From assembly GCF_001457595.1 (NCBI RefSeq), contig NZ_LN831039.1, forward strand, positions 1,920,001 through 1,952,000: 32,000 bases of DNA, written 5' to 3'. Position 1 is the stretch's first letter. Each line of letters starts with the position of its first letter. Shown piece by piece: positions 11,791 through 28,148 of the stretch. Source of the DNA: Mycolicibacterium smegmatis. Lineage in GTDB: Bacteria > Actinomycetota > Actinomycetes > Mycobacteriales > Mycobacteriaceae. Under the pieces are notes generated by a model that worked only from the letters and a program-made list of their open reading frames with translations, had not been told where the DNA came from and searched no databases. The position numbers and the translations under genes were made by a program.

Positions 11791-11994
11791 CTAGCTATCG
11801 CGGGGGTCATCGGGGTCGAGGTCGACGGTTTCGCGTTGCTCCTGCCAGTCACCGTCGCCGGCCTCCAGCGGAGGGCCGTCGGGGTCGGACACCGAGTTCT
11901 CGTCGCTCTCGCCGATGAGCGGCCGGACGGCAGGTTGATCTTGTTCGACAGCGTCTGCGACAGGTACCTCGTCGGGTACGTCCTGGTGTTCCAT
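11791..11994 (-). CDS. Small highly acidic hypothetical protein (67 aa)
   Basis: ATG 11994 lies 12 nt after the -10 A of the promoter at 12006. MEHQDVPDEVPVADAVEQDQ... is D/E/P-rich. It is 15 nt upstream of the SDR gene. Confidence 0.55.
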   Translation of the reverse strand: MEHQDVPDEVPVADAVEQDQPAVRPLIGESDENSVSDPDGPPLEAGDGDWQEQRETVDLDPDDPRDS

Positions 11995-12005
11995 GGCCGG
12001 GCGGA

Positions 12006-12029
12006 TACCCGAGAAGTTCTCGATCAAAC
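12006..12029 (-). promoter_or_regulatory. SigF-type promoter, exact consensus, for the 6-gene minus-strand operon
   Basis: The minus strand reads GTTT(12029-12026)-N15-GGGTATCCG(12010-12002). Confidence 0.7.
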
Positions 12030-12038
12030 TCTTCGAGT

Positions 12039-12062
12039 GTTTAAGAGTGCAGTGCCCGGGTA
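12039..12062 (+). promoter_or_regulatory. SigF-type promoter, exact consensus, for the first glycosyltransferase genes
   Basis: GTTT(12039-12042)-N15-GGGTA(12058-12062). ATG 12074 lies 12 nt after the -10 A. Confidence 0.7.
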
Positions 12063-12073
12063 CGCCCGGTCTC

Positions 12074-13045
12074 ATGACTTCAGACCGGTTGCGGTCGATC
12101 TTGGCTTGGCATGTGCACGGTTCCTGGATGGAATCGTTCGTTTCGGGCGGCCACCGTTATCTGATCCCGCTCAACGCGGCGGGCGACGCACACGGGCGTG
12201 GCCTGTGCGGTCGTAATTGGCCTGCCGCGCAATAAGTCTCACTCGATCGCCTGCGTGAGGAAGACGTCGACCTCGTGGTCCTGCAGCGGCCCGAGGAGAT
12301 CGAACTGGTCGAACGATTTCTCGGTCGGCGTCCCGGAATGGACATTCCCGCGGTGTATGTCGAGCACAATGCGCCACGGCCCTACGCCGTGGATGCTGTG
12401 CATCCGCTTGCGGAACGCTGTGACATCCCTGTGGTGCACGTGACCGATTACAACCGCTTGATGTGGGACACCGGCATCGCACCGACGCGCGTGATCACGC
12501 ACGGAATCGCCGATCCCGGCAACCTTTTCAGCCCGGAGATCGGTGCCGCGGCGACGATGATCAACGAACCGATACGGCGCTGGCGAACAGTCGGGACCGA
12601 TCTGCTCGCGAAACTGAGCACGCACGTTCCCATCGACGTCTGGGGCATCGGGAGCGCGGAGCTCAACATCGACGGCCGGCTCGGGGCGGTGCGGGGACGC
12701 GGCGACGTGGGACATCCACAGGTGCTGCACGAAATCGCGAGACGGCACGTCTATGTGCACACGGCGCGGTGGACCTCACTGGGGCTGTCCCTGCTCGAGG
12801 CGATGTTCGTCGGCATGCCGATCGTCGCCGTCGGTACCACGCAGGTGCCGATGGTGGTGCCTGCGGACGCGGGTGTGGTGAGCGCGGATGTCGAGGAGCT
12901 GGGATCCGCACTCCGGAGATATGTGAACGACCCGTCCGCGGCGGCTGTTGCGGGCAAAGCGGCCCGTGAATACGCACTGGTCCATTTCGGCCTCCACCGG
13001 TTCCTCACCGACTGGGACCGTCTGATCGCCGAATTCTGCCGGTGA
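12074..13045 (+). pseudogene. GT-B (GT4-like) glycosyltransferase interrupted by in-frame TAA at 12233-12235
   Basis: ORFs 11993..12235 and 12275..13045 share one frame and only one stop lies between them. The N-terminal part is MTSDRLRSILAWHVHGSWMESFVSGGHRYLIP. The C-terminal part has WTSLGLSLLEAMFVGMPIVAV. Confidence 0.75.
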
Positions 13046-13061
13046 CTTCGAGGAGTGGTGA

Positions 13062-14284
13062 ATGAAGATTGCGATGGTATCTGAGCACGCCAGCCCGCTC
13101 GCGGCTCTCGGCGGCGTCGACGCAGGAGGTCAAAATGTACACGTTGCCGAGCTGTCGGCGGCGTTGAGCCGCCGTGGCCATGAGGTGGCGGTCTACACCA
13201 GACGCGATGACCCGGATCTGCCCGAGCGCATCGTCACCCCCGACGGGTACAGCGTCCATCACGTGCCTGCCGGGCCGGCGGAGCCCATACCCAAAGACGA
13301 ATTGCTGCAATACATGGGGGATTCGCGCGGTACCTCGACCGGTGCTGGTCGGCCGACCGGCCGGACGTCGTGCACGCCCACTTCTGGATGTCCGGCGTCG
13401 CCACCCAGCTCGCGGCACGCCACCTCAACCTGCCCGCCGTCCAGACTTTCCACGCCCTGGGCGTCGTGAAACGGCGTTACCAGGGCGCCAAGGACACCAG
13501 CCCGCCCGACCGGTTGAAGTTGGAGGCGATGGTCGCACGCTGCGCCACGTGGGTTGCCGCGACGTGCACCGACGAGGTTTTCGAGCTCATGAGGCTGGGC
13601 CGGTCGCGTTCGCAGACGTCGGTCGTTCCATGCGGTGTCGATGTCGAGCTGTTCCGGCCCGACGGGCCGAAAGCCCCCCGCGGAGAGCTGCATCGAATCG
13701 TCAGTGTCGGGAGATTCGTGCCGCGCAAGGGTTTCGACGTGGTCATCCGAGCACTGCCGAGCGTTCCCGGCGCCGAACTGGTCATCGTCGGTGGACCGGA
13801 CCGGGCCGGCCTCGACAGCGACCCTGAAGCGTGCCGACTGCGCGAACTGGCGCGCCAACTCGGGGTCGGCGACCGGGTGAAGATGTACGGAGCGGTGGCT
13901 CGAAAGGACATGCCTGCCGTATTGCGCTCGGCCGATGTGGTCGCGTGCACTCCCTGGTACGAACCATTCGGGATCGTGCCGCTGGAGGCGATGGCGTGCG
14001 GAGCACCGGTGGTGGCTTCCGCCGTCGGCGGGATGCTCGACACCGTCGTACACGACGTGACCGGCCGCCTGGTGACACCCAAGCGGCCGGACCGGGTGGC
14101 CGAGGCGCTCAACGGTCTGCTGCGCGATGAGTTCCTGCGGCAGAGCCTGGGCGCTGCGGGGCGCGACCGCGCCCGGTCGCGCTACACCTGGGACCGCATC
14201 GCCGCGGACACCCTGCGAATCTACGACCGCATCGGACCGTCGGGCTACCAGCGGTCCGATGCGCCGAGCGCGTCGCTGGGGTGA
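13062..14284 (+). pseudogene. MshA-like GT4 glycosyltransferase with -1 frameshift near 13316-13322
   Basis: The N-terminal domain (MKIAMVSEHASPLAALGGVDAGGQNVHV...ELLQYMGD) is in the frame of 13062. The continuation FARYLDRCWSADRPDVVHAHFWMSG...EPFGIVPLEAMACGAPVVAS is in the frame of 13370. Confidence 0.8.
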
Positions 14285-14289
14285 GCGTG

Positions 14290-15186
14290 TCAGCGCTGAC
14301 GGTCGCGCTCCAGAACGGCGAGCGCACTTTCGACAGACGACGGCAGTCGCCTGCGGTGGGTGATCACCGCGGGCAGACGCAGCACTGCCTCGACCGCCGC
14401 ACGCGCGTGCTCGGTGTCGTGTGCGGCCGCCCGCAGCAGCGACGCGGTGGCCTCGACACAGTTCCGCGCGGGTCTGCGCAGCCAGGTGGTGAGCACGTCG
14501 TTACGCAGACTGCGAGCGTCCTGCGCCGCGGTGGTCGGCCGCTGCTGCGACGGTTGGTGGATGGCCGTCAGCTCGGCGCAGTAACACAGATCCCAGCCCA
14601 GCGCAGCCAGATCCAGTGCGAGCAGTCGCTCCTCGCCGCGGAAGTGCAGGATCTCACTGAATCCGCCCGCGGCCTCGAACGCCGTTTTCCTGACCATTGC
14701 CGAACACGCGAGGAACCCCAGGATCGAGGGACCCGGCAGGTCGTGGCGGTGTCCCAGGGCGCTGTTGGCCAACTGCTCGACGAGAGGATCCTCGCGGCGC
14801 TGCGGCCACACCTCGGTGCGGCCCGCGAGGACCGCGAGCGTGGGATACCGGTCGAACATCTGCGCGCCGCGTGCCGGAGCCTGCGGTTCCCACCACGAAT
14901 CGTCGTCACAGAAGGCGACGTAGGGTGTGCGGCACGCCGCGACGCCGACGTTGCGCCCGACCGCGCCGAGATTCGACGAGAGCCCCATCACCGCGACGCG
15001 GCCCGCCGACCGGGCGGCGACACGACCCACCACCTTCACCGAGTCGTCATCGGACCCGTTGTCCACCACGATGATCGGGCAGGCAGTGGTATCCAGAAGG
15101 CGCTGCACCACGCGGGAGAGTTCCGGTGCGCGGTTCCGGCTCGCGATCACGAACGACATCTTCTGCTGCAACGCACTCTCATCCAT
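14290..15186 (-). CDS. GT2-family glycosyltransferase (298 aa)
   Basis: MSFVIASRNRAPEL...IIVVDNGSDD...AFCDDDSWW (DxD) form a GT-A fold signature. Start is ATG 15186 or 15159. Confidence 0.8.
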   Translation of the reverse strand: MDESALQQKMSFVIASRNRAPELSRVVQRLLDTTACPIIVVDNGSDDDSVKVVGRVAARSAGRVAVMGLSSNLGAVGRNVGVAACRTPYVAFCDDDSWWEPQAPARGAQMFDRYPTLAVLAGRTEVWPQRREDPLVEQLANSALGHRHDLPGPSILGFLACSAMVRKTAFEAAGGFSEILHFRGEERLLALDLAALGWDLCYCAELTAIHQPSQQRPTTAAQDARSLRNDVLTTWLRRPARNCVEATASLLRAAAHDTEHARAAVEAVLRLPAVITHRRRLPSSVESALAVLERDRQR

Positions 15187-15198
15187 AACCCCGCGAGC

Positions 15199-15222
15199 TA
15201 CCCGCGACGACGATCGGTAAAC
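15199..15222 (-). promoter_or_regulatory. SigF-type promoter, exact consensus, for the GT2 gene
   Basis: The minus strand reads GTTT(15222-15219)-N15-GGGTA(15203-15199). ATG 15186 lies 13 nt after the -10 A. Confidence 0.65.
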
Positions 15223-15235
15223 CGCTGTGCATGAA

Positions 15236-16171
15236 ATGAAGCGTGTCCTGGTCACCGGAGGAGGCGGATTCCTCGGCGGCCATCTGTGCGAACGGCTGCT
15301 CGACGGCGGCCTCGAAGTGTTCTGTGTCGACGACCTGTCGACGAGCGCCCCGAGCACCGTCGACCTCCTGAGCGGACGAAGCGGGTACACCTTCGTCCAC
15401 CACGACATCAGCGCCCCGCTGACGGACGTGCCCGTTGTGGACACCGTGTTCCATCTGGCATCACCGGCCTCACCGGTGGATTACCAACGCATGCCGGTAC
15501 AGACCCTGCGCACCGGTTCACTCGGCACCGCCAATGCGCTGGATTTCGCCGAACGCTGCGGCGCCCGCTTGATCCTGACCTCCACCAGTGAGATCTATGG
15601 CGATCCCTTGGAACATCCGCAGCGCGAAACCTATTGGGGTAACGTCAATCCTGTTGGGCTGCGGAGCGTCTACGACGAGGCCAAGCGGTTCGCCGAAGCG
15701 TTGACTTTCGCATACCAACGCGCCAGGGACGCCGACATCGGAGTCGCGCGGCTCTTCAACACCTACGGGCCGCGGATGCGTGGCGACGACGGGCGCGTCG
15801 TGCCGACGTTCTGCCGGCAGGCACTGTGCGGGGAACCGATCACGGTGCACGGCACGGGACGGCAGACCCGCTCACTGTGCTACGTCGACGACACGGTCGA
15901 CGCATTGATCGCGCTCGCAGAATCCGATTGCACGGGACCACTCAACATAGGCAATCCCCACGAGATGACGGTGTTGGAGATCGCCGAGACCGTGCGTGAG
16001 CTGGCGGGCAGTGCGTCGTCCATCGAGTTCCTGCCCCTCGGTGAGGACGACCCGCAACGACGGTGCCCCGACATCACCGCCGCCAGAGAACAACTCGGCT
16101 GGCAACCCAAGATCGGATGCCGCGAAGGGCTTGCGAGAACGCTCAAATGGTTTTCTGTGCAACAACATTAG
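15236..16171 (+). CDS. UDP-glucuronate decarboxylase (UDP-xylose synthase)-type extended SDR (311 aa)
   Basis: VLVTGGGGFLGGHL, STSEIYGDPLEHPQRETYWGNVNPVGLRSVYDEAKRFAE and FNTYGPRM...DGRVV closely match the UXS family. An alternative GTG start is at 15227. Confidence 0.85.
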   Translation: MKRVLVTGGGGFLGGHLCERLLDGGLEVFCVDDLSTSAPSTVDLLSGRSGYTFVHHDISAPLTDVPVVDTVFHLASPASPVDYQRMPVQTLRTGSLGTANALDFAERCGARLILTSTSEIYGDPLEHPQRETYWGNVNPVGLRSVYDEAKRFAEALTFAYQRARDADIGVARLFNTYGPRMRGDDGRVVPTFCRQALCGEPITVHGTGRQTRSLCYVDDTVDALIALAESDCTGPLNIGNPHEMTVLEIAETVRELAGSASSIEFLPLGEDDPQRRCPDITAAREQLGWQPKIGCREGLARTLKWFSVQQH

Positions 16172-16174
16172 GAG

Positions 16175-17794
16175 ATGGACGTGCGGATTCTGGGAATCAA
16201 TGCGGTGTTCCACGACCCGGCCGCCGCGCTGGTCGTCGACGGCCACATCGTCGCAGCCGCCGAAGAGGAACGGTTCAGCAGGCGTAAACACGGCAAGGAG
16301 GCAGTCGCGTTCTCGACGTGGGAACTCCCCGTACAGGCGGCGCGTTGGTGCCTTGAACAGGCCGGCCTGTCGCCATCGGATCTCGATGCTGTTGGGTACT
16401 CCTATGATCCCCGGCTGATGCAGGGGCAGGGCACCGACCTCGCGGGCCTTGACCGTGACTGGGAGTACCTGCGAACGCTGTATGCCGAACGGGCGCCGCG
16501 CTTCCTGCAATCCGCCCTGCCGGGACTCGATCCCGATGTGGTGCGGTATGTCCGGCACCATGTGGCGCACGCCGCCTCGAGTGCGCTGGCCTCACCCCAC
16601 CCCGATTGCGCGGTGCTGGTGGTCGACGGCCGCGGTGAGCGGACATCCATGCTCATGGGGGATTACACCGACAACAAACTCGACATCCTGGCCACGCAGG
16701 ACCTGCCGCATTCCCTAGGCCTCCTGTACGAGGACCTGACGCAGCATCTGGGCTTCAAACGGTCCAGCGACGAGTACAAAGTCATGGCGATGGCGTCCTA
16801 CGGCAGGCCACGTTTCGTCGACGAATTCCGGGAACTCGTCCGCGCCACCGGTGACGGTGGTTTCCGCACCGAACCGGTGGACTGGGATCGGTATGGCACG
16901 GAGTGGGATGACCGTGTCGACCTCGCGTGCAGCGTCCAGTGCGTCGTCGAGGAGGTCCTGCTCGATTTGGTGCAGTGGCTGCGCGCCCGCACCGACCATG
17001 AAAATCTCTGTCTCGCCGGTGGAGTCGCCCTCAATTGCGTGGCGAACTCCAAGCTTTACAACAGCGGAGGTTTCCGCAGCGTGTGGGTGCAACCGGCGGC
17101 GGGGGACTCGGGTACGGCGCTCGGGGCGGCGCTGTCGCTGGCCGCCGAGGCCGGCGAACCGATCACACCGATGCCGACGGCTGCGCTCGGCCGGGGCTTC
17201 TCCGACGACGAGATCGAGGCGGTGCTCACCGAAGCCGCTGTGCCGTTCGAACGTCCACGCGACTTCGCCGCCGCCGTAGGTGACGCACTGGCCGAGGATC
17301 GGATCGTCGGATGGTTCCAGGGACGGTCCGAGTTCGGGCCGAGGGCGCTGGGCCGCCGGTCGCTGCTGGCCGACCCGCGTCGCGCGGAGAACCTCGACCG
17401 TCTCAACGCTGTGAAGGGCCGTGAGCAGTTCCGCCCCGTGGCACCCATGGTGCTCGCCGAGTGCGCCGCCGAGATCTTCTCCGGGGGACCGCTTCCCAGC
17501 CCGTACATGCTGTTCGTCCACGACGTGGCCCCACAGTGGCGGGCACAAATCCCCGCGGTCACCCACGTCGACAACACGGCGCGCATACAGACCGTCGACA
17601 ACGACGATGCGCTGCTGCACGCCACGATCAGCAGATTCGCCGAACGCACCGGTGTGCCGGTGATCGTCAACACCAGTTTCAACACCGCGGGCCGACCCAT
17701 GGTCGACACTCCACGCGACGCCCTGGAATGCTTCGGCAGCGCACCCATCGACGTGCTCGCGATCGGCCCGTTCCTCGTACGGAGGCCTCGTTGA
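16175..17794 (+). CDS. NodU/CmcH-family carbamoyltransferase (539 aa)
   Basis: ILGINAVFHDPAAALVVDGHIVAAAEEERFSRRKH at the N-terminus, and a C-terminal FRPVAPMV...NTSFNTAGRPMVDTPRDA. An AGGAG SD precedes ATG 16175. Confidence 0.85.
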   Translation: MDVRILGINAVFHDPAAALVVDGHIVAAAEEERFSRRKHGKEAVAFSTWELPVQAARWCLEQAGLSPSDLDAVGYSYDPRLMQGQGTDLAGLDRDWEYLRTLYAERAPRFLQSALPGLDPDVVRYVRHHVAHAASSALASPHPDCAVLVVDGRGERTSMLMGDYTDNKLDILATQDLPHSLGLLYEDLTQHLGFKRSSDEYKVMAMASYGRPRFVDEFRELVRATGDGGFRTEPVDWDRYGTEWDDRVDLACSVQCVVEEVLLDLVQWLRARTDHENLCLAGGVALNCVANSKLYNSGGFRSVWVQPAAGDSGTALGAALSLAAEAGEPITPMPTAALGRGFSDDEIEAVLTEAAVPFERPRDFAAAVGDALAEDRIVGWFQGRSEFGPRALGRRSLLADPRRAENLDRLNAVKGREQFRPVAPMVLAECAAEIFSGGPLPSPYMLFVHDVAPQWRAQIPAVTHVDNTARIQTVDNDDALLHATISRFAERTGVPVIVNTSFNTAGRPMVDTPRDALECFGSAPIDVLAIGPFLVRRPR

Positions 17795-19296
17795 GCTCGA
17801 CCGGTCCGGACTTCGCTGTCGTCATCCCCACCATCGGACGGCCCACCCTGCAGCGCCTGATCGCGGCTCTGGAGAGGGATCTGGTGAACACTCCTGGTGT
17901 CACACCGCAGGCGGTGATCATCGTCGACGACCGGGCGGAAGCTGTTCCACCCCTGCTGATCACGTCGGAGCTTCCGATCACCGTGGTGCGCAGCGGAGGC
18001 CGCGGGCCCGCCGCTGCGCGTAATGCCGGGTGGCGCCGTGCCGACGCCCGCTGGATCTGCTTCCTCGACGACGACGTGCGCCCTGATCCCGGTTGGGCCG
18101 CGGCGCTCGCGGAGGATCTCGCGGCCGCCGACGCCACCGGGGCCGTCGGCTCGCAGGCGATCATCGGTGTTCCGGTCCGGCCCGGGCGACGCGTCTCCGA
18201 CGACGAGCGGCGAACGCAGCGGCTTGAGACCGCGCAGTGGATCACCGCCGACATGGCGTATCGCAGATCCGCGCTGGTCGAGGTCGGCGGGTTCGACGAG
18301 CGCTTTCCCCGCGCCTACCGCGAGGATTCCGATCTGGGGCTTCGGATCACGTTGTCGGGGAAGGCCATCGTGCAGGGTGGTCGCCGCTCGACACATCCCG
18401 TGGCACGGGCGAGGTGGGCAAGCAGCGTGCGTGCACAGGTCGGCAATCGAGACGATGCCCTGTTGCACCGCAAGTACGGCAAGGGCTGGCGACCGGCCAT
18501 CGGTGAGGGCCGGGGCCGCCTGTCCGCGCACATCGCGACGACCGTGGCGGCCTGCACCGCGCTCGCCGCGCGCGACCGCCAGGTGTCGCGGTGGGGCCGC
18601 ATAGCGTGGTGCGCCCTGACCGCCGATTTCGCGCTGCGCCGGTTCCTGTCCGGGCAACGCACGGTCGGCGAAGCGGCGCGGATGTTGGTGACCAGCATCC
18701 TGATCCCACCGGTAGCGGTGTATCACCGCCTGCGCGGGGAGTGGGACCACCGTGCCGCACGTCGTGATCCACCGCTCGCGGTGCTTCTGGACCGGGACGA
18801 CACGATCATCGAGGACGTCCCGTATCTCAACGATCCCGGCGGTGTCGTTCCGGTGGCCGGGGCCGACGACGCGTTGAACAGCCTGCGCGCCAACGGGATA
18901 CTGCTCGCGGTGGTGACGAATCAGTCCGGGGTCGCAAAAGGGCTGATCGACACGGACCAGTTGGCCGAGGTCAACGCGCGCGTCGACGAACTGCTCGGGC
19001 CGTTCGACACCTGGCAGATCTGTGTGCACGACGCAGGCGACGGGTGTGAATGCCGCAAACCCCGGCCCGGCATGGTGCTGGCCGCCGCCGAGGCGCTCGG
19101 TGTACCTCCCGACCGCTGCGTGCTGATCGGCGACACCGGAGGCGACGTGCAAGCCGCACTGGCTGCCCGCGCCCGAGCGGTCCTGGTGCCCACCGGGAAA
19201 ACCTTGCCGCACGAGGTTTCACATGCGCGTGAGCGGGCACGCGTGGCGTCGACGTTGACCGAGGCGGTGGCGATGGTGCTCAAGGAGGCCCGATGA
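17791..19296 (+). CDS. gmhB: Fusion protein: GT2 glycosyltransferase + D,D-heptose-1,7-bisphosphate phosphatase (GmhB) domain (501 aa)
   Basis: TTG 17791 (GGAGG lies 5 nt upstream; TTGA overlaps the previous stop). The N-terminal part is FAVVIPTIGRP...FLDDDV (GT-A). The C-terminal part is LLDRDDTII...VVTNQSGVAKG...CVHDAGDGCECRKPRPGM...IGDTGGD (HAD, GmhB-type). Confidence 0.8.
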   Translation: MSSTGPDFAVVIPTIGRPTLQRLIAALERDLVNTPGVTPQAVIIVDDRAEAVPPLLITSELPITVVRSGGRGPAAARNAGWRRADARWICFLDDDVRPDPGWAAALAEDLAAADATGAVGSQAIIGVPVRPGRRVSDDERRTQRLETAQWITADMAYRRSALVEVGGFDERFPRAYREDSDLGLRITLSGKAIVQGGRRSTHPVARARWASSVRAQVGNRDDALLHRKYGKGWRPAIGEGRGRLSAHIATTVAACTALAARDRQVSRWGRIAWCALTADFALRRFLSGQRTVGEAARMLVTSILIPPVAVYHRLRGEWDHRAARRDPPLAVLLDRDDTIIEDVPYLNDPGGVVPVAGADDALNSLRANGILLAVVTNQSGVAKGLIDTDQLAEVNARVDELLGPFDTWQICVHDAGDGCECRKPRPGMVLAAAEALGVPPDRCVLIGDTGGDVQAALAARARAVLVPTGKTLPHEVSHARERARVASTLTEAVAMVLKEAR

Positions 19297-20315
19297 CCCG
19301 AGCGGTGGTGGCGCGACTCGACAGTGCCGGTGATGTGCTGATCACCGGTCCTGCGGTACGGGCCGTCGCGGCGGCCCACGACTCGGTGACGTTCCTGGCC
19401 GGTCCGCGAGGCCGCGCCGCGGCCGAGATGCTGCCCGGTGTCGACGATGTCATCGAGTGGCAGGCACCATGGGTGGACTTCGACTCCCCCGAGCTCACCG
19501 CCGGTCATGTGGAGGCGCTGGTCAAGCAGCTAAGCGATCTGACGCCCGAGCGTGCGCTGATCTGCACGTCATTTCACCAGTCGCCGCTGCCCTTGGCGCT
19601 GCTGTTCCGAATGGCCGGGGTGCCATGGATCGGCGCCATCAGCGAGGACTATCCGGGAACTCTGCTGAACCTGCGACACCACGTCGAGCCGGGCGTACCG
19701 GAACCGGAACGCGCGTTGTCCCTCGCGCGGGCAGCCGGATTCGACCTACCCGCCGGCGACGACGGGTCACTGCGGGTGCGCACGGCACCCGGGCTGCCAC
19801 GTGAGCTCGCCGATCGGATCGGACCCGACCCATTCGTGGTGTTCCACCCCGGTGCCGCGGTTCCGGCGCGCAGGCCCACCGCCTCACGCAGCGCACGCAT
19901 GGTCCGCGCGCTGCACGCGGCAGGCCATCGGGTGGTGGTCACCGGGGACGACCGCGAACGGGATCTGACAGCCGCGGTCGCAGGCGATGTCGCGGTCGAC
20001 CTCGGTGGCGCCACGACGCTCACCACGCTGGGCACGGTCTTCGCGCACGCCGAGACGGTCGTCGTACCGAACACCGGGCCGGCGCATCTGGCGGCCGCGG
20101 TCGGCGCCCCGATCGTCTCACTGTTCGCGCCGGTGGTGCCGGCATCGCAGTGGAGCCCATACGCGCGCAACGTCATCCGGCTCGGTGACCAGAATGCGCC
20201 GTGCCGTCAGACCCGTGCCCGCGAGTGCCCGGTGCCCGGCCATCCGTGCCTGGACGGCATCACCGACACCCAACTGGTGGACGCGGTCGAACGACTGGGA
20301 GGGAGACCACGATGA
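19293..20315 (+). CDS. GT9-family glycosyltransferase (heptosyltransferase-like) 1 (340 aa)
   Basis: ARLDSAGDVLITGPAVRAV, VVFHPGAAVPARR and VVPNTGPAHLAAAVGAPIVSLFAPV resemble RfaC/RfaF-type enzymes. ATGA overlap with the upstream gene. Confidence 0.75.
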   Translation: MTRAVVARLDSAGDVLITGPAVRAVAAAHDSVTFLAGPRGRAAAEMLPGVDDVIEWQAPWVDFDSPELTAGHVEALVKQLSDLTPERALICTSFHQSPLPLALLFRMAGVPWIGAISEDYPGTLLNLRHHVEPGVPEPERALSLARAAGFDLPAGDDGSLRVRTAPGLPRELADRIGPDPFVVFHPGAAVPARRPTASRSARMVRALHAAGHRVVVTGDDRERDLTAAVAGDVAVDLGGATTLTTLGTVFAHAETVVVPNTGPAHLAAAVGAPIVSLFAPVVPASQWSPYARNVIRLGDQNAPCRQTRARECPVPGHPCLDGITDTQLVDAVERLGGRPR

Positions 20316-20962
20316 AAGAAGCGGTGGGCAAGGTGATCAACCCCACATCAACTGCCTCGGCAGGGATAGGCCCGATCGGGGACCACGTCGCCGCACTCGG
20401 ACACGCGGTCGGTCGAATCGACTGCGAGACCCCGCGCCTGACCCGGTGGGGCAGACACCTCGCGCAGATCCTCACCGGCGGAGGCCGATTACTGGCCTGC
20501 GGTAACGGCGGCAGCGCCGCGGAGGCCCAGCACCTGACCGCCGAACTCGTCGGACGGTTCCGTGACGAACGGGTCCCGTTGTCGGCCATCGCGTTACACG
20601 CCGACACGTCGGCGCTCACCGCGATCTGCAACGACTACGGCGCCGAAGAGATCTTCGCCCGCGGCGTACACGCGCACGGCCGCCCAGGCGATGTGCTGGT
20701 GGCCCTGTCGACCAGCGGAACCAGCCCGAACGTGCTCGCGGCGGTCAAGGCCGCCCACGCCGAAGGGCTCACCACGTGGGCCATGACCGGGCCCGCACCC
20801 AACCCGCTGGCGGCGATGTGCGATGACGCGATCTGTGTCGAGGCGCCCAACACAGCAACCGTGCAGGAGATCCACCTGCTGCTGGTCCATGCGTTGTGTA
20901 TCGCGCTCGACGGCGTATTGCCCATGAGCGGAGGGGTTTTGGGGGTGCGTGATGCGCGGTGA
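20312..20962 (+). CDS. gmhA: Sedoheptulose-7-phosphate isomerase (SIS domain) (216 aa)
   Basis: LLACGNGGSAAEAQHLTAELVGRF, NDYG and ALSTSGTSPNVL resemble GmhA. ATGA overlap with the upstream gene. Confidence 0.8.
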   Translation: MKEAVGKVINPTSTASAGIGPIGDHVAALGHAVGRIDCETPRLTRWGRHLAQILTGGGRLLACGNGGSAAEAQHLTAELVGRFRDERVPLSAIALHADTSALTAICNDYGAEEIFARGVHAHGRPGDVLVALSTSGTSPNVLAAVKAAHAEGLTTWAMTGPAPNPLAAMCDDAICVEAPNTATVQEIHLLLVHALCIALDGVLPMSGGVLGVRDAR

Positions 20963-22317
20963 CCCGCTTGTGATCGTCGGGGACTGCATGCTCGACGTGG
21001 ATGTCGAAGGAACCGCGACACGGCTCAGTCCCGAGGCGCCGGTGCCCGTGGTGGACGCCCAGCGGGTCTGGCACCGACCGGGCGGGGCGGGCCTGGCGGC
21101 CATGCTCGCCGCGCGAGGCGAACCGGACGTCGTGCTGGTCACCGCGCTCGCCGACGACGAGGACGGCCGTCGCCTTCGCGGCCTGCTGGAGCGCGCGGGC
21201 GTCGCGGTGGTCTCACTGCCGCTGAAGGGAACCACGGTGTGCAAGACCAGGATCCGTGCGGTCGGACAGTCGATGCTGCGTCTGGACCACGGTGACGGCA
21301 CGGCCGCCGACGACGAGCTTCCCGCTCAGGACGCGGGTGCTGCACCAGGCGCGGGCGATATGCGTCGCCGACTACGGCCGCGGCGTCACGGCGCACGCCG
21401 GTATCCGCGGAATCCTCGGCGACGTTGCCGCGCGGGTGCCGGTGGTGTGGGATCCCCATCCGCGCGGTGCGCCACCGGTGCCGGGATGCCGGCTCGTGAC
21501 CCCCAACGAGGCCGAGGCGCAGGGTCGCTCGGCCGAGACGATGCGCGAACAGTGGCAGGCCGACGCCGTGTGTGTGACCCTCGGCTCACGGGGAGCGATG
21601 GTCGCCACGGAGGACGACGGCACGGTGCTGGTGGCGGTGCCCAGCACCGTGATGGCCGCATCGGGACGATCCGACACGTGCGGCGCGGGCGATCGCTTCG
21701 CCGTCGCTGCCACGCTCGCACTCGCCGACGGGCATGCCGTCGTGCCCGTGGTCACCGCGGCCGTCGAGGCCGCCGGCAGGTTCGTGGCCGCAGGGGGTGC
21801 GGTGGGGGTGTCGAGTCCGGCCGAGTGCGGCGGATACCGGGGCGCCGCGGGAGAAGCGACCGCGGTCATCGGGGACGTGACCGAGATACGAGATCGCTTG
21901 CGCAGCAGGGGCGGACGTCTCGTGGCCACGGGAGGCTGTTTCGACCTGCTCCACACCGGCCATGTGCGGCTGCTGCACCAGGCGCGCCAACTGGGCGACG
22001 CCCTCGTGGTGCTGGTGAATTCGGACTCGTCGGTGCGGGCGCTGAAAGGTCCTGACCGCCCGGTGATGGCCGACGTGGACCGTGCGCGGGTCCTCGCGGC
22101 ACTGGCGTGCGTGGATGCCGTGGTGATCTTCGACGAGTCCTCACCCGAACAACAGTTGGAGCGCCTGCGTCCCGACGTGTGGGTCAAAGGTGGTGACTAC
22201 ACCGAGGCCGATCTGCCGGAGGCCGCAGTCGTACGCCGCCACGGTGGGGAAGTTGTCCTGCTGCCCACAGTGGCGGGCTATTCATCGTCGAATCTGATCG
22301 CAGCGATGCGGTCATGA
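20949..22317 (+). pseudogene. hldE: Bifunctional heptose-7-P kinase / heptose-1-P adenylyltransferase (HldE/RfaE) with +1 frameshift near 21327-21340
   Basis: The kinase N-terminus (VIVGDCMLDVDVEGTATRLSPEAPVPVV...RPGGAG) is in the frame of 20949. The continuation (ICVADYGRGV...DTCGAGDRF...GGCFDLLHTGHVRLL...KGGDY) is in the frame of 21256. Confidence 0.8.
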
Positions 22318-22333
22318 CAAGAGGGGGAGTCAC

Positions 22334-23026
22334 ATGAACACGAACATCGGGAACGTGATCATCACCGGCGGCGCGTCGGGTCTGGGTGCTGCCACCGTCG
22401 AAGCCGTTGTCCGACAGGGGGGTACACCACTCGTCCTGGACCGGAACACGCCCGCGGCGGACGTGCCGTACCGCTGTGTCGACCTGGCCGACACCGGGGC
22501 TGTCGAGACCGCGGTCGCCGCACTGGCCGACCAGGTAGGCGGTGTGGTCAACGGTGTGTTCACCGCCGGGGGCACCGACGCGTGCGGCAAGCTCGCCGAT
22601 GTCCCGGTCAAGGACTGGGAGCGGGTGATCCACGTGAACCTTCTGGGAACCGTGGCGGTGGTCCGCGCGGCGCTGCCCTACCTCAGATCGAGTGGGGGAC
22701 GCATCGTCACGTGCGCTTCGACGCTGGGCGTCAAGGCCGTGAGCGACGCCACCGCCTACTGCGCGTCGAAGTTCGGCGTCGTGGGTTTCAGCCGCGCGCT
22801 GGCCGCCGAACTCGCGGGCGAGGTGGGCGTCACGTTGTTGATCCCCGGCGGGATGCACACAGCGTTCTTCGACGGACGGGACGAGCAGTACAAGCCGCCG
22901 GCGGATGCCAAGCTCAACGATCCGGCGAACGTGGCCCAGACGGTGCTGTTCGCGCTCTCCCAGCCCGCCGGGTGTGAGATCCGGGAACTGGTCGTCTGCG
23001 CATCCACCGAATCATCATGGCCGTGA
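22334..23026 (+). CDS. Classical short-chain dehydrogenase/reductase (230 aa)
   Basis: VIITGGASGLGAAT and YCASKFGV (YxxxK). A GAGGGGGAG SD precedes ATG 22334. Confidence 0.8.
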   Translation: MNTNIGNVIITGGASGLGAATVEAVVRQGGTPLVLDRNTPAADVPYRCVDLADTGAVETAVAALADQVGGVVNGVFTAGGTDACGKLADVPVKDWERVIHVNLLGTVAVVRAALPYLRSSGGRIVTCASTLGVKAVSDATAYCASKFGVVGFSRALAAELAGEVGVTLLIPGGMHTAFFDGRDEQYKPPADAKLNDPANVAQTVLFALSQPAGCEIRELVVCASTESSWP

Positions 23027-23985
23027 CCTCACCGGGAACCCAGTGGAATTCGTCCGTCGAGCACGTGCTCGTGCTGCGGGCGCTGGGACTCGGTGACCTG
23101 CTGACGGGCATACCCGCGCTGCGCGGCCTGCGCCGTGCCTTTCCCGGCGCCGTCGTCACGCTGGCCGCCCCGCAGCGGTTCGCCGATCTGGCCATGCTCT
23201 CCGGCGCGGTGACCGAGGTCCGGCCCACCGACGGACTGGGGCGGCTGCGGCCCGGGCCCCGGCCGCCGGATCTCGCGGTCAACCTGCACGGCAGCGGGCC
23301 GCAGAGCACGGCGGATCTGCTGGCGCTGCGACCCCGGACATTGCTCACCCACCGCCATCCTGAGTATCAGGATGTGTCCGGCCCGCCGTGGCGTACCGAT
23401 CTACACGAGGTGGATCGCTGGTGTCATCTTCTGCAGTGGTACGGCATCGACTGCGATGCAGAGGATCTCGCGTTGCCCAGACCCGCGGGGTATGACGACT
23501 TCTCCGGGGTGGTGGTGATCCATCCCGGTGCGGCGTACCCGGCGCGCAGGTGGCCGGTCGAGCGGTTCGCCGCGGTCGCGGGCGCTCTGCGCGCTGCCGG
23601 TCACGATGTGGTGGTCACCGGCGACGCGAGCGAGGAAGACCTCGCACGTTCGGTCGTCGAGCTCGCCGGTCTGCCCGAAACCTGCTTGTTCGCAGGCAAG
23701 CTCGATGTGCTGGGACTGGTGGCGCTGATCAGCGACTGCCGGCTGTTGGTGTGCGGCGACACCGGGGTCGGCCACGTCGCGACGGCCACGGGTACGCCTT
23801 CGGTGCTGTTGTTCGGGCCCACCCCGCCCAGCCGTTGGGGCCCGCGCGGGAACGGACCGCACGTGGCGTTGTGGGCCGGCGACCGGGGCGATCCGCACGG
23901 CCAGGAACCGCACAGCGGCCTGCTGCTGATCACAGTGCCCCGAGTGCTCGACGCCGCACGAGAACTTCTGGGGGTGCGAGCGTGA
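23017..23985 (+). CDS. GT9-family glycosyltransferase (heptosyltransferase-like) 2 (322 aa)
   Basis: VLVLRALGLGDLLTGIPALRGL, VVIHPGAAYPARRWP and LVCGDTGVGHVATATGTPSVLLFGPT. It overlaps the SDR stop by 10 nt. Confidence 0.75.
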   Translation: MAVTSPGTQWNSSVEHVLVLRALGLGDLLTGIPALRGLRRAFPGAVVTLAAPQRFADLAMLSGAVTEVRPTDGLGRLRPGPRPPDLAVNLHGSGPQSTADLLALRPRTLLTHRHPEYQDVSGPPWRTDLHEVDRWCHLLQWYGIDCDAEDLALPRPAGYDDFSGVVVIHPGAAYPARRWPVERFAAVAGALRAAGHDVVVTGDASEEDLARSVVELAGLPETCLFAGKLDVLGLVALISDCRLLVCGDTGVGHVATATGTPSVLLFGPTPPSRWGPRGNGPHVALWAGDRGDPHGQEPHSGLLLITVPRVLDAARELLGVRA

Positions 23986-25277
23986 AGGTGGGCGTCGTCG
24001 GAGTCGGCTACGTGGGATTGACCACCGCGGTCTGCCTCGCCGAGCGCTCCCACGACACCGTGTGCATCGACATCGACGAGAACCGCGTGCGGCAACTGTC
24101 CTCCGGCATCACACCGATCGACGAGCCCGGTCTTCCAGAACTGCTCGAGGCCGGACTGCGGCACGCGACGCTGCGATTCAGCAGTGACATCGGGGCGCTC
24201 GCCGATCGCCAGGTGGTGTTCGTGTGTGTTCCCACGCCCAGCGGCGACGACGGGTCGGCGGACCTGCGCGCGGTCGACGACGTCGTGGAGGGCGTCGCGC
24301 GGGTCGGTGCGGCAGGAGCGGTACTCGCGATGAAGTCGACAGTGCCGGTGGGAACCACGCGCCGGGTCGAAAACCGGCTGCGCGAGGTTGGAATCCACGC
24401 GGTGTCCAACCCGGAGTTCCTGCGGGAGAGCCACGCCGTCTACGACTTCCGCCACCCCGACCGGATCCTGATCGGGTCTGATGACGAGGCGGCGGCAGAC
24501 GTCGTGGCTCGGGTGTACGGCGAGACGGCCCGGGAAACGGCGATGCGCATGAGCCCCGAGAGCGCCGAGCTCGCGAAGTACGCCAGCAACGCATTCTTGG
24601 CATTGAAGGTCTCGTATGCCAACTCGCTGGCCCAGCTGTGCGCACATGCCGGTGCAGACATCGGCGACGTCGTGCGGTGCATGGGCGCCGACGTCCGGAT
24701 CGGACCGCACTTCCTGCAACCGGGCCCGGGGTGGGGCGGATCGTGTCTGCCCAAGGACACCGCGGCGCTGCTGCACACCGGTCGCCGCTACGGCGTCGAT
24801 CTCCCCGAGGTGTCCTCGGCGTGTGCGACCAACCGCGCGCAGGCCGCTCGGATCATCGCCGTGCTGCAGCGCAACATGTCCGCTCCCATTGCCACCGCGC
24901 GTGTGGCGGCACTCGGCCTGACGTTCAAGGCCGGCACGTGCGACATCCGGGACTCGCCCGCGTTGGCGGTGTGCGAGGAGATGGCGCGCGCGGGCGCCCA
25001 GATCAACGGTTACGACCCGCGACTGGAGATGATCGACCACGCCGTGCTGCGTCGCTCCTCGGTGGCCGCGGTGGACGACCCCTACCTCGCGACCAAGGAC
25101 GCCGACGGCATCGTCATCTTCACCGAATGGCCCGAATTCCGCGATCTGAACTGGTCGAGGATCGCCGATCAGGCACCGGGCGCGGTGGTGGTGGACACCC
25201 GCAACCTGCTCGACCCCGATTCGGTGAAGGCCCGCGGTCTGACATACCTCGGCAACGGCAGACCCGCGGGGTTCTGA
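23982..25277 (+). CDS. UDP-glucose 6-dehydrogenase family (431 aa)
   Basis: VKVGVVGVGYVGLTTAVCLA (Rossmann), NPEFLRES and GWGGSCLPKD (catalytic Cys). GTG 23982 overlaps the previous stop (GTGA). Confidence 0.85.
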   Translation: MKVGVVGVGYVGLTTAVCLAERSHDTVCIDIDENRVRQLSSGITPIDEPGLPELLEAGLRHATLRFSSDIGALADRQVVFVCVPTPSGDDGSADLRAVDDVVEGVARVGAAGAVLAMKSTVPVGTTRRVENRLREVGIHAVSNPEFLRESHAVYDFRHPDRILIGSDDEAAADVVARVYGETARETAMRMSPESAELAKYASNAFLALKVSYANSLAQLCAHAGADIGDVVRCMGADVRIGPHFLQPGPGWGGSCLPKDTAALLHTGRRYGVDLPEVSSACATNRAQAARIIAVLQRNMSAPIATARVAALGLTFKAGTCDIRDSPALAVCEEMARAGAQINGYDPRLEMIDHAVLRRSSVAAVDDPYLATKDADGIVIFTEWPEFRDLNWSRIADQAPGAVVVDTRNLLDPDSVKARGLTYLGNGRPAGF

Positions 25278-25280
25278 GCG

Positions 25281-26297
25281 TCAGCCGCGCGCCATCCTCC
25301 GGATCAACCGGGCAGTCGCGCGGTCCAGCACGGACTGACGCTCATCGGCAGACCGCGTGCGCGCGGCGCGGCGCACCGCGGACTCGATCGTGATGCCGTT
25401 GCGGTAGGCCTGCACCACCCGTGGGTCGACGTAGGCACTGCGCGCGACCGCAGGGGTGTTCCCGAGCCCTTCGGAGACCTCCCGCATCACCGCCGACTCG
25501 ACGCGCTTGACCACTTTGGGGTCCACCGGCGGATCGGCATCGACGAACGCCTCGGCGGCCAGCACCGTGCCGTGCCAGGTACGCAGGTCCTTGACCGTGT
25601 AGTCTTCACCGACCATCTCTTTGAAGCGAAGATTGAGGTCGTCGGCGTGGACCTCCACCCAGTCCGCCGATTCCTGGTACGCCAGAAAACGTTCCCCGCG
25701 CTTGCGGTGTCGCTGCAGGGCCCGCACGGCACGGACCACGTCGTCGTCCTCGACGAGCAACGTACGCCGTACCCCGCTCTTCGCCGGATAGTCGAACTCC
25801 ACTCCGTCGCGGCCCACGCTCACGTGCTCGCACTGCAGTGTCGCGATACCGAACGAATTGTTCTCCTCGGCGTATCTCTCACCGCCCGCACGGAAGTATC
25901 CGAGGTCGAGCAGACGCAGCCCCAGCGCCAGCACCCGATCGCGGCGCAGGCCTCGCCGGGCGAGATCGGCTGCCACGTGCTGTCGCCAATCATGAAGCCC
26001 TGCAGACATTTCCAGTACGCGGTCGAATTTCTCCTCACTGCGTTCCTGTTGCCACTGCGGGTGGTACAGGTACTGGCGCCTGCCTGCGACATCGGTGCCG
26101 ACAGCCTGGATGTGCCCGGAAGCATGCGGGCAGATCCAGACCGCCTTCCAGGCCGGGGGGATGACGAGATCGTCGATGCGCTGCAGCACCTTGCGATCAG
26201 TTACCGCCTGCCCGTCGGGCTTTCGATAGCTGAAGCCTCGGCCCCTGCGGATCCGCTTGATCCCGGGGCCGTCGACGACGCTTCGACGCAGCCGCAT
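25281..26297 (-). CDS. Bacterial poxvirus-like type IB DNA topoisomerase (338 aa)
   Basis: FSYRKPDG...DLVIPPAW..VWICP...GHIQAVGTDVAGRRQYLYHP, YTVKDLRTWHGT and LGNTPAVARSAYVDP (candidate catalytic Tyr). Pattern matched by eye. Confidence 0.75.
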   Translation of the reverse strand: MRLRRSVVDGPGIKRIRRGRGFSYRKPDGQAVTDRKVLQRIDDLVIPPAWKAVWICPHASGHIQAVGTDVAGRRQYLYHPQWQQERSEEKFDRVLEMSAGLHDWRQHVAADLARRGLRRDRVLALGLRLLDLGYFRAGGERYAEENNSFGIATLQCEHVSVGRDGVEFDYPAKSGVRRTLLVEDDDVVRAVRALQRHRKRGERFLAYQESADWVEVHADDLNLRFKEMVGEDYTVKDLRTWHGTVLAAEAFVDADPPVDPKVVKRVESAVMREVSEGLGNTPAVARSAYVDPRVVQAYRNGITIESAVRRAARTRSADERQSVLDRATARLIRRMARG

Positions 26298-26316
26298 GAT
26301 CAGCAGCTCGCGACGC

Positions 26317-26342
26317 GTTTAGTGCCCGCGTAGGCACGGGTA
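26317..26342 (+). promoter_or_regulatory. SigF-type promoter, exact consensus, for the RsbW-like gene
   Basis: GTTT(26317-26320)-N17-GGGTA(26338-26342), followed by AGGAG (26349-26353). Confidence 0.6.
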
Positions 26343-26352
26343 ACCCGCAGGA

Positions 26353-26973: not shown

Positions 26974-27410
26974 GTGTTCTCCACCAGTTGCAGTGGTCGT
27001 TGATCGCTCTTGCGGGACAACGCCGACGCAACGTCGGGAGAGGTGGTCAGCCCGGAGTCCGGATCACAGATGCGGAGCACCCGTGTGACGGCCTTGCTCG
27101 GCACCACCACCCACTCGGCGTCGGCCCCGGCGCACCGCACATTGAGAGTGTGCAACGTGGTGAAACACGCAGCTCCGAAGAAGGCGACATCGCTCAGGTC
27201 GAGCACGAGTTTCGTGTTCCGTGTGAGGGCCTTCAGGGCATAGTCGGTGAGGAGGCCTGCATTGGAGGCATCCAGGTCGCCGTGAACTGTCACGACGGCG
27301 GTCGTGGTGTTGATCCGTTCGGTGGTGAAATGCGCGTGTTGTCGTGCATGGCTGCCGCTGTGAGGACTACTCCTCTTGGCAACGCTGATTGTGGGCATGT
27401 GTGACTCCAT
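26970..27410 (-). CDS. STAS-domain anti-sigma-factor antagonist (RsfA-like) (146 aa)
   Basis: AVVTVHGDLDASNAGLL...KLVLDLSDVAFFGAACFTTL is a SpoIIAA/RsbV-like fold pattern. Its stop overlaps the convergent RsbW-like stop (CTAA). Confidence 0.75.
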   Translation of the reverse strand: MESHMPTISVAKRSSPHSGSHARQHAHFTTERINTTTAVVTVHGDLDASNAGLLTDYALKALTRNTKLVLDLSDVAFFGAACFTTLHTLNVRCAGADAEWVVVPSKAVTRVLRICDPDSGLTTSPDVASALSRKSDQRPLQLVENT

Positions 27411-27872: not shown

Positions 27873-27897
27873 GTTTGGTACTCGAAGTGTCCGGGTA
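27873..27897 (+). promoter_or_regulatory. SigF-type promoter, exact consensus, for the small-protein operon
   Basis: GTTT(27873-27876)-N16-GGGTATCCG(27893-27901). ATG 27908 lies 11 nt after the -10 A. Confidence 0.7.
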
Positions 27898-28141: not shown

Positions 28142-28148
28142 GGTCGTC

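Follow-up and report, generated by a model that had tools for sequence, protein, structure and literature searches.

The closest described relative of the locus discussed here is the cwg operon of Streptomyces coelicolor, a sigmaE-dependent operon of 12 genes (sco6179-6190, cwgA-L) (Tran et al. 2019, PMC6767563). The literature on this operon lists cwgH (SCO6186) as a phosphoheptose isomerase, cwgI (SCO6187) as a bifunctional RfaE, cwgE as a putative heptosyl transferase and cwgA (SCO6179) as a nucleotide sugar dehydratase. Since 2002 cwg has been a marker of the Streptomyces envelope-stress response. It was reportedly described by Hong, Paget and Buttner in that year, and to our knowledge nobody has reported what it makes. 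Here we analyze 32,000 nucleotides of Mycolicibacterium smegmatis (NCBI RefSeq assembly GCF_001457595.1, contig NZ_LN831039.1, positions 1,920,001 to 1,952,000; this whole stretch is called the window, and coordinates are counted within it), which contain 12 consecutive sugar-pathway genes just upstream of sigF. We propose that these genes are a mycobacterial version of an actinobacterial cwg-type glycan cluster that was recently inactivated in this strain, a reading to which we assign a probability of roughly 0.8. The window holds a recently dead copy of a recognized but chemically uncharacterized cluster.

The comparison with cwg rests on loci collected by scanning one genome per species with an alignment of the bifunctional heptose kinase/adenylyltransferase HldE and annotated by tblastn with the 12 intact M. 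smegmatis proteins. The loci are a sample: at least 58 are actinobacterial, and 39 are listed with full flanks. In the Streptomyces loci retrieved with M. smegmatis HldE, among which S. coelicolor is not represented, 10 of the 12 M. smegmatis proteins have orthologues. These loci consist of 12 genes in the order UDP-glucuronate decarboxylase (UXS), carbamoyltransferase, family 2 glycosyltransferase (GT2), HAD phosphatase, GT9, GT-B, GT4, GmhA, HldE, GT9, GT2 and GT2. By position this order fits the published cwg annotation, with a UXS-like gene first, a heptosyltransferase-like gene fifth, GmhA eighth and RfaE ninth. One Streptomyces locus (L072) carries CGCAACCAGGTCCCCGTTTTCGTCATCTT upstream of its UXS gene, identical at 27 of 29 bases to the published sigmaE promoter of cwg. 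A strict sigmaE promoter pattern found no match upstream of the Streptomyces UXS genes, and reading the upstream sequences revealed a cwg-like promoter in L072 only, with none within 300 bp in the other Streptomyces loci. On the strength of the synteny with the Streptomyces loci and of the published cwg promoter in L072, the M. smegmatis block is the predicted mycobacterial cwg cluster.

Closer to home, all 12 genes are intact and in the same order in M. goodii and in an M. fortuitum-type contig, in the context Nramp, short-chain dehydrogenase (SDR), cluster, topoisomerase IB, HATPase, STAS. Comparison of the intact M. smegmatis strain with M. goodii gives a pN/pS of 0.17 in the cluster and 0.16 in the flanking genes, which indicates ordinary purifying selection on the cluster where it is intact. 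Further afield, cluster-bearing taxa among the at least 58 listed loci include Mycobacterium, Nocardia, Saccharomonospora, Amycolatopsis, Actinomadura, Streptosporangium, Nonomuraea, Micromonospora, Dactylosporangium, Arthrobacter, Microbacterium, Nocardiopsis, Streptomyces, Acidimicrobiales and Solirubrobacterales; the HldE of Prescottella equi is 53% identical. Across the 39 loci with full flanks, the most frequent members are GmhA (37), GT9a (35), GT4 (33), GT-B and GT9b (32 each) and the carbamoyltransferase (27), followed by the GT2-HAD fusion and the SDR (24 each), UXS (20), GT2 (17) and UDP-glucose 6-dehydrogenase (UGDH, 4). Median protein identities in these loci are 43-66%, and the SDR, with a median of 66% in its 24 loci, is among the best-conserved cluster proteins. 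A polysaccharide pyruvyl transferase accompanies the cluster in at least 11 of the listed loci. The non-actinobacterial loci listed have hldE alone, with or without gmhA. Judged from these loci, the gene set is syntenic phylum-wide and not a mycobacterial oddity. An earlier account of the same DNA, made without database searches (hereafter the sequence-only reading), had presented the locus as an unrecognized mycobacterial peculiarity, which its conservation across Actinomycetota and its match to cwg contradict; its mention of similar gmhA-rfaE-GT9 clusters in Streptomyces was borne out.

Two further features recur around the cluster. A type IB topoisomerase gene (window 25281-26297, minus strand) adjoins it in M. 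smegmatis, M. goodii and the M. fortuitum-type contig, and also in Micromonospora, Flexivirga and uncultured Actinomycetota (6 of the 39 listed full loci); the loci with an adjoining topoisomerase IB gene are L036, L040, L041, L047, L049, L052 and L054. The M. smegmatis mc2 155 equivalent of this gene, MSMEG_1784, is SigF-dependent. In Arthrobacter, Kutzneria and Pseudonocardia (L035, L046, L061, L062, L070), a second, more distant HldE-like gene with 36-38% identity is located a few kb away; Pseudonocardia has two copies, which are 41% and 47% identical.

Pfam searches verified the 12 genes and the domain assignments of the sequence-only reading. The block forms three transcription units. The first consists of a GT-B-fold glycosyltransferase pseudogene (12074-13045, plus strand; 323 aa if intact; Glycos_transf_1, 35.7 bits) with marginal matches only in the PDB, and of a GT4 pseudogene of the sucrose-phosphate-synthase/MshA clade (13062-14284, plus strand; 407 aa if intact). 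The GT4 protein scores 237.6 bits against the NCBIfam MshA model (cutoff 462.5), and its best PDB matches are the sucrose-phosphate synthase Tll1590 (226 bits) and then MshA (173 bits). The second unit is an intact GT2 gene (14290-15186, minus strand; 298 aa; Glycos_transf_2, 66.4 bits), for which the gene calls in relatives agree. The third is a tightly coupled core of nine plus-strand genes, in which the stop/start overlaps described in the sequence-only reading are present (TTGA at 17791, ATGA at 19293 and 20312, GTGA at 23982) and support its view of a closely packed, coupled group. An Rfam scan of the whole window gave no match.

The core begins with UXS (15236-16171; 311 aa; Epimerase/GDP_Man_Dehyd), which matches human UDP-glucuronate decarboxylase UXS1 with 338 bits over residues 2-307, the next family reaching 124 bits. 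This gene is the counterpart of cwgA/SCO6179. It is followed by an O-carbamoyltransferase of the TobZ/NodU/CmcH family (16181-17794; 537 aa), whose start in the annotation of relatives is 16181 instead of the 16175 given earlier. This protein has the two-domain architecture of a Kae1-like N-terminal and a YrdC-like C-terminal part (Carbam_trans_N, 182.6 bits; Carbam_trans_C, 220.9 bits) and matches TobZ, NovN and GdmN in the PDB with E-values of 1e-83 to 1e-97; against the NCBIfam NodU equivalog it scores 187.6 bits and does not reach the cutoff of 1000. The third gene fuses a GT2 domain to a GmhB-type HAD-IIIA phosphatase (17791-19296; 501 aa). The fusion protein has 99% identity to an M. smegmatis protein. 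Pfam supports both domains, the protein scores above cutoff for the NCBIfam domain models HAD-IIIA and Histidinol-ppas, and the motifs DRDDT (DxDxT) and CxH...CxCRKP are present as in GmhB; the best equivalog is beta-GmhB PRK08942, with 120.5 bits against a cutoff of 178. EpsD is the best-scoring NCBIfam model for the GT2 domains, followed by MftF.

Next come GT9a (19293-20315; 340 aa) and a GmhA-type sedoheptulose-7-phosphate isomerase (20312-20962; 216 aa; SIS_2, 88 bits), whose top NCBIfam matches are the gmhA equivalogs (185 bits against a cutoff of 276; TIGR00441, 165.8 against 209.45). The hldE pseudogene (20952-22317; heptose-7-phosphate kinase plus heptose-1-phosphate adenylyltransferase, PfkB plus CTP_transf_like; 455 aa if intact) precedes a classical SDR (22334-23026; 230 aa; adh_short) that has no PDB match at E<=1e-20. 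The NCBIfam tests were run on intact orthologues, which for HldE means L002 13162-14529. The adenylyltransferase half of this orthologue passes the rfaE_dom_II cutoff (182.8 against 181.5 bits) and holds the HxGH motif in GCFDLLHTGH; the full-length HldE model aligns over residues 6-454 with 277 bits against a cutoff of 521. The core ends with GT9b (23017-23985; 322 aa) and UGDH (23982-25277; 431 aa), in which the N-terminal, central and C-terminal UDPG_MGDP_dh domains all match and which passes the NCBIfam NDP-sugDHase cutoff (411.7 against 189.8 bits). Both GT9 proteins belong to Glyco_transf_9 (PF01075; 76.5 bits for GT9a and 99.4 bits for GT9b, cutoff 22). Against the NCBIfam models heptsyl_trn_I, II and III, which define equivalence to WaaC, WaaF and WaaQ, they score 31-72 bits and miss the cutoffs of 134-185 by a wide margin. 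In GT9a only the C-terminal donor-binding domain aligns to solved GT9 and WaaF structures, and the PDB matches of GT9b (3tov, WaaF, WaaC) likewise cover the C-terminal domain; the N-terminal acceptor domains of both show no similarity to lipopolysaccharide (LPS) heptosyltransferases. Since GmhA, full-length HldE, GmhB and both GT9s match the expected families below the equivalog cutoffs, we regard them as divergent members.

From this family membership, we propose that GmhA isomerase, PfkB kinase, HAD phosphatase and adenylyltransferase would together form an ADP-heptose-type route in the intact relatives. Enzymology of the ADP-heptose type, with a PfkB kinase and an RfaE-type adenylyltransferase and not HddA/HddC, is supported by the domain matches and agrees with the sequence-only reading. 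UGDH and UXS could supply UDP-xylose from UDP-glucose via UDP-glucuronate. The two GT9 enzymes might then add heptose, while the GT-B enzyme, the sucrose-phosphate-synthase/MshA-like GT4 and the two GT2 domains might add other sugars, the TobZ/NodU-type enzyme might O-carbamoylate a sugar, and the conserved 230-aa SDR might modify one. The assignments of the two GT9s, of the UDP-glucuronate to UDP-xylose supply and of the O-carbamoyltransferase had also been made in the sequence-only reading, and the domain matches support them. The GT9 donor would be ADP-heptose, as suggested by co-localization with gmhA and hldE in 35 of the 39 listed loci, probably in the D,D form, since there is no HldD-type epimerase. 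Hydrophobic segments of the kind that spans a membrane are missing from all 12 proteins, and no flippase, polymerase, priming transferase or transporter lies in the cluster or is conserved nearby in the listed loci, nor do any genes for ligation. Because all 12 proteins look soluble and export genes are missing from the neighborhood, assembly would be cytoplasmic; the acceptor is not encoded in the block, and any export would depend on genes elsewhere.

We predict a carbamoylated product with heptose and with xylose and/or glucuronate. In two gammaproteobacterial loci (L085, L095), a carbamoyltransferase homologue with 32-39% identity lies near hldE, which agrees with the presence of O-carbamoyl-heptose in some lipopolysaccharide cores and hints that the carbamoyl group of the cluster product may sit on heptose. 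Intact strains most likely assemble in the cytoplasm a carbamoylated glycan with heptose plus xylose or glucuronate, under the control of a stress sigma factor. As to the nature of the conjugate, we place an envelope or lipid-linked glycan ahead of a soluble glycoside, and the latter ahead of protein heptosylation.

A specialized small molecule, for example a heptose-bearing carbamoylated glycoside built on a soluble primer, is the alternative to an envelope glycan that fares best, and we still consider it unlikely. The solved carbamoyltransferases that were matched (TobZ, NovN, GdmN) all act on small molecules, and the GT4 clade of sucrose-phosphate synthase, MshA and GlgM, the closest characterized relatives of the cluster enzyme, glycosylates small phosphorylated acceptors. 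The EpsD and then MftF scores of the GT2 domains and the missing flippase, polymerase, priming transferase and transporter also fit such a product. However, synteny of 12 genes at 45-65% identity from Mycobacteriaceae to Acidimicrobiales and Solirubrobacterales is unusual for secondary metabolism, and in three mycobacterial species the cluster has a fixed chromosomal position within a stress regulon. There are no polyketide synthase, nonribosomal peptide synthetase, aminotransferase or resistance genes, and the pyruvyl transferase in at least 11 listed loci points towards a polysaccharide repeat unit.

It is still less probable that the GT9 enzymes heptosylate cytoplasmic proteins, in the manner of the TibC/AAH autotransporter heptosyltransferases, with the other transferases extending the glycan. 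ADP-heptose-dependent protein O-heptosylation exists in Gram-negative bacteria, all the enzymes of the block look soluble, and the N-terminal acceptor domains of both GT9s bear no resemblance to LPS heptosyltransferases. Against this, a PDB search with either GT9 returned only the LPS-type structures 3tov, WaaF and WaaC, with no TibC at E<=0.001, and no candidate substrate protein is conserved beside the cluster.

We tentatively suggest, at somewhat less than even odds, that the intact clusters make a chemically undescribed, stress-induced, carbamoylated-heptose glycoconjugate common to most Actinomycetota, from Streptomyces with its cwg operon to rapidly growing mycobacteria, Nocardia and Prescottella equi, and overlooked in mycobacteria because mc2 155 has deleted the block. 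If this is true, Gram-positive-type bacteria including pathogens would produce ADP-heptose, a known innate-immune agonist, for which the sequence-only reading had pointed to a possible link with the ALPK1-TIFA axis.

In the strain of the window this product is not expected, since hldE, GT4 and GT-B are broken. The lesions were located by translating all three frames and by comparing the sequence with six further aligned M. smegmatis contigs. In the GT-B gene, GAA is replaced by an in-frame TAA at 12233-12235 (Glu54 to stop), and the first base of this codon (12233) is G in L001-L006 and L010. One A is deleted at 13320 in GT4, which shifts the frame after about codon 86, and a 2-bp deletion at about 21329-21331 shifts the hldE frame after about codon 127, inside the PfkB kinase domain. 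All 12 genes are intact in the CP027541.1-type strain (323, 407, 298, 311, 537, 501, 340, 216, 455, 230, 322 and 431 aa in cluster order), whose sequence (assembly GCA_000331165.2) is 99.7% identical to the window and which is presumably MKD8. Within the cluster, the window differs from the intact strain by 13 nonsynonymous and 17 synonymous substitutions, and this small number indicates that the inactivation is recent. The three genes are pseudogenes in this strain, and the pathway has recently been inactivated. The sequence-only reading had missed these lesions. It had described a complete GmhA+HldE+GmhB route, which is incomplete in this genome because the hldE deletion splits the kinase domain. 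Its observation was real but incomplete, and its interpretation was right on the enzymology and wrong on completeness and uniqueness.

The same lesions recur, as a mosaic, in strains that differ elsewhere (L007, L010-L014). In L007, L013 and L014, UXS has in addition lost 1 bp at 15895; in L010 the GT-B gene is intact and the SDR gene has an extra G at 22416; and in L011 hldE is intact, with the GT-B stop and the deletions in GT4 and UXS retained. A stretch of 21,023 bp of the window (9293-30315) matches the NCBI assembly sequence JBDQEF010000001.1 with 100% identity, and likewise a Logan contig from at least 20 samples. By sequence inspection, no long repeat lies at any of the three lesion sites in the window, one G7 to G8 change occurring in another strain, and we therefore rejected phase variation as the source of the lesions. 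Beside the cluster, one sister strain (L010/L100) has an 8-bp deletion, at the equivalent of window 26491-26498, that shortens the RsbW-like HATPase gene to 158 aa. In the CP027541.1 strain, a DDE transposase gene (DDE_Tnp_1_4; L002 19306-20709) that is absent from the window lies between the HATPase (MSMEG_1787-like) and STAS (RsfA) genes, inserted between the window equivalents of 26973 and 26970.

Could the locus nevertheless function in this strain, with downstream frames read from internal starts, so that the pathway ran on enzymes that are split or truncated, or used a kinase from another locus? Candidate downstream frames exist for GT-B (256 aa), GT4 (304 aa) and HldE (326-341 aa), the last containing the whole adenylyltransferase domain, which lies entirely downstream of the frameshift. 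Gene callers list the shortened frames as genes, nine of the 12 genes remain intact, and substitutions are few. We regard this as very improbable, however. The hldE frameshift interrupts the PfkB kinase fold near residue 127 of its roughly 300, and not at a domain boundary; GT4 would lose its first 100 or so residues and GT-B about its first 67. The indels lie outside long repeats that would permit phase switching, except for the G7 to G8 change in another strain, and the independent UXS and SDR lesions in sister strains, together with the haplotype that lacks the block, form the pattern of a dispensable, decaying locus. That the lesions are assembly or sequencing errors and that the real organism has 12 intact genes is hardly credible: single-base indels are a common artifact of long-read assemblies, yet all three lesions are shared by the NCBI assembly and by short-read Logan assemblies of at least 20 samples, they recur in the strains that differ elsewhere, one is a substitution, and long homopolymers are found at none of the three sites. 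Their recurrence in independent short-read assemblies and in otherwise different strains shows that they are not sequencing errors.

The recently inactivated cwg-type cluster of the window has a counterpart in outright absence. We assigned the flanking genes to mc2 155 locus tags with Table_1 of Martini et al. 2019 (PMC6448022) and with locus-tag descriptions in other papers: the Nramp gene corresponds to MSMEG_1780, the 295-aa SDR gene to MSMEG_1782, a small open reading frame (ORF) to MSMEG_1783, the topoisomerase IB gene to MSMEG_1784, the STAS gene to MSMEG_1786 (RsfA) and the HATPase gene to MSMEG_1787; chaB, rsbW and sigF lie immediately past the right end of the window. In mc2 155, MSMEG_1783 ends at 1868551 and MSMEG_1784 starts at 1868641 (Martini et al. 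2019, PMC6448022, Table_1), a gap of 89 bp compared with 13,260 bp in the window. An empty-site contig with the mc2 155 geometry (L102) aligns to the window up to 12030 and resumes at 25298, with 103 unrelated bases between, so that 13,267 bp (12031-25297) are missing from the cluster-less haplotype. The left breakpoint lies directly beside the -35 element of the MSMEG_1782 promoter, and the SigF motif of the cluster (12039-12062) therefore falls in the missing block. Since M. goodii and the M. fortuitum-type contig carry the intact cluster in the same context, its presence is ancestral and its absence from mc2 155-type strains a derived loss. The flanks of L102 differ in identity to the window (99.4% on the left, 98.0% on the right, 25298-32000), as does the 3' end of the topoisomerase IB gene, which suggests that recombination left a mosaic around the block, in place of a simple clean deletion. 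A further segment of about 6 kb in mc2 155 (1874566-1880365, MSMEG_1795-1800), between the DUF6328 gene and chaB, is missing from the window's strain (compared with L098 4056-4348) and from L102; with the cluster block, this makes at least two large strain indels in the sigF neighborhood.

The strain mc2 155 is the one in which the known M. smegmatis glycoconjugates were characterized, and it lacks the whole block. The locus is therefore not required there for the pathways of arabinogalactan, lipomannan and lipoarabinomannan, phosphatidylinositol mannosides, glycopeptidolipids, trehalose lipids or the methylglucose and methylmannose polysaccharides (MGLP/MMP). There are no pks, mmpL, papA or fadD genes in or beside the block. 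Literature searches for M. smegmatis ADP-heptose, heptosyltransferase and phosphoheptose isomerase returned nothing on this locus; the only M. smegmatis 'gmhA' in print is MSMEG_2706, a SIS protein in a hydrogenase cluster.

Regulation provides a second parallel to cwg. With the consensus GTTT-N15-17-GGGTA from the M. smegmatis SigF regulon literature, we verified the two exact motifs (GTTT-N15-GGGTA) that the sequence-only reading had placed before the flanking units: GTTTAAGAGTGCAGTGCCCGGGTA before GT-B/GT4 (12039-12062, plus strand) and GTTTACCGATCGTCGTCGCGGGTA before the GT2 gene (15222-15199, minus strand). Another M. smegmatis strain, M. goodii and the M. fortuitum-type contig share the -35 and -10 elements of both, and the spacer is variable. 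The first motif forms a back-to-back divergent pair with that of MSMEG_1782 (12029-12006, minus strand), 9 bp away. MSMEG_1782 is strongly SigF-dependent according to the SigF regulon literature, and in mc2 155-type sequence its mapped transcription start (Martini et al. 2019, PMC6448022) follows the motif by about 13 nt. The window as a whole contains 10 sites matching GTTT-N15-17-GGGTA where 0.09 are expected by chance (848, 5186, 5247, 8043, 12006, 12039, 15199, 26317, 27873 and 29503), a dense island of SigF promoters corresponding roughly to MSMEG_1770-1801, beside sigF. Stationary-phase or stress expression of the cluster would be expected, because two of its three units have conserved SigF-type promoters and the block lies in this sigF-proximal regulon island. 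Elsewhere, a SigB/F-type sigma factor gene stands beside the cluster in at least 11 listed loci from several orders, and cluster genes are preceded by SigF-type motifs, at distances of 29-71 bp, in several other taxa, among them Saccharomonospora, Marmoricola, Kutzneria, one Streptomyces and a Streptosporangiaceae metagenome-assembled genome. Because of these adjoining genes and upstream motifs, the cluster seems to be widely controlled by a general-stress sigma factor; the S. coelicolor lineage uses sigmaE instead.

Two other sequences in this region deserve mention. A SigF-like sequence, GTTG-N15-GGGCA at 15058-15081, is conserved in the three species and lies inside the conserved coding sequence of the opposite-strand GT2 gene, for which reason we rejected it as evidence of a core promoter. 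The 94-aa ORF at 11791-12075 (minus strand, the MSMEG_1783 equivalent) has no Pfam or NCBIfam match and contains the promoter of the downstream SDR gene and its transcription start as mapped in mc2 155; it may not be a real gene.

Several points weigh against reading the block as a stress-controlled, cwg-type ADP-heptose glycan cluster. The literature search found no product, acceptor or enzyme activity for the cluster in any organism, and in the literature, too, the 'cell wall glycan' label of cwg is a prediction. The proteins miss most of the NCBIfam equivalog cutoffs (GmhA, full-length HldE, GmhB, GT9s), so substrate specificities could differ from those of the Gram-negative enzymes. SigF dependence of the cluster promoters is a prediction, all SigF regulon work having been done in mc2 155, which is without them. 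For the nine-gene core we found no promoter, neither a sigma70-type site nor an exact SigF motif, as had been the case in the sequence-only reading. The absence from mc2 155, finally, rests on published gene coordinates together with an empty-site contig of the same geometry.

Taken as a cwg-type cluster, the locus adds to the Streptomyces work that the gene set is phylum-wide, that it is under purifying selection in rapidly growing mycobacteria and that it lies within the SigF regulon island of M. smegmatis. Results obtained with mc2 155 are not representative of the species for this pathway. The comparison of wild type and mutants proposed in the sequence-only reading is not feasible in the strain of the window, where the genes are pseudogenes, or in mc2 155, which is without the block. 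M. smegmatis offers a natural series instead: intact in the CP027541.1 strain, progressively broken in the window's strain and its relatives, and cleanly deleted in the mc2 155 haplotype. This series is the main value of the locus, since it would allow the cwg product to be sought by comparative glycomics without building mutants.

Set beside the Gram-negative ADP-heptose/LPS route, the block shares the four-step enzyme logic, the domain families, the bifunctional HldE made of PfkB kinase and adenylyltransferase, and the GT9 donor-binding domain. Unlike that route, it is without an HldD 6-epimerase and without a Kdo (3-deoxy-D-manno-oct-2-ulosonic acid)-lipid A acceptor, its GT9 N-terminal domains are unrelated in sequence, and its GmhB is fused to a GT2. 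The core heptose of Pseudomonas aeruginosa carries a 7-O-carbamoyl group added by a NodU-family enzyme, a precedent for pairing a carbamoyltransferase with GT9 enzymes. The M. tuberculosis genes Rv0113-Rv0115 (gmhA, gmhB, hddA) likewise start from sedoheptulose-7-phosphate with a GmhA-type isomerase and a HAD phosphatase, and are of the GDP-heptose type with a GHMP kinase and a guanylyltransferase, whereas the block has a PfkB kinase and an RfaE adenylyltransferase, that is, the ADP, beta-anomer route. ADP-heptose-type chemistry is also found in Gram-positive actinomycetes, in the septacidin and hygromycin B pathways of Streptomyces. There the heptose genes sit inside strain-specific antibiotic clusters, in contrast to the block, which is a conserved chromosomal cluster at a fixed position with no scaffold-forming enzymes.

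The closest parallel is cwg itself, and the differences from it are mostly of arrangement. M. smegmatis has three transcription units in place of one operon, with GT-B and GT4 at the front and a single GT2 on the opposite strand. It carries the GT2-GmhB fusion, has an added SDR and UDP-glucose dehydrogenase, and has no pyruvyl transferase near the block; three of its genes are dead in this window. Its promoters are SigF-type, whereas those of cwg are of the sigmaE type AAC-N16-18-CGTCT, a motif that was not searched for in the M. smegmatis block. What the two have in common is the same protein families, in largely the same order outside mycobacteria, and the form of a stress-induced block of about 12 genes, the induction in M. 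smegmatis being predicted from its SigF motifs.

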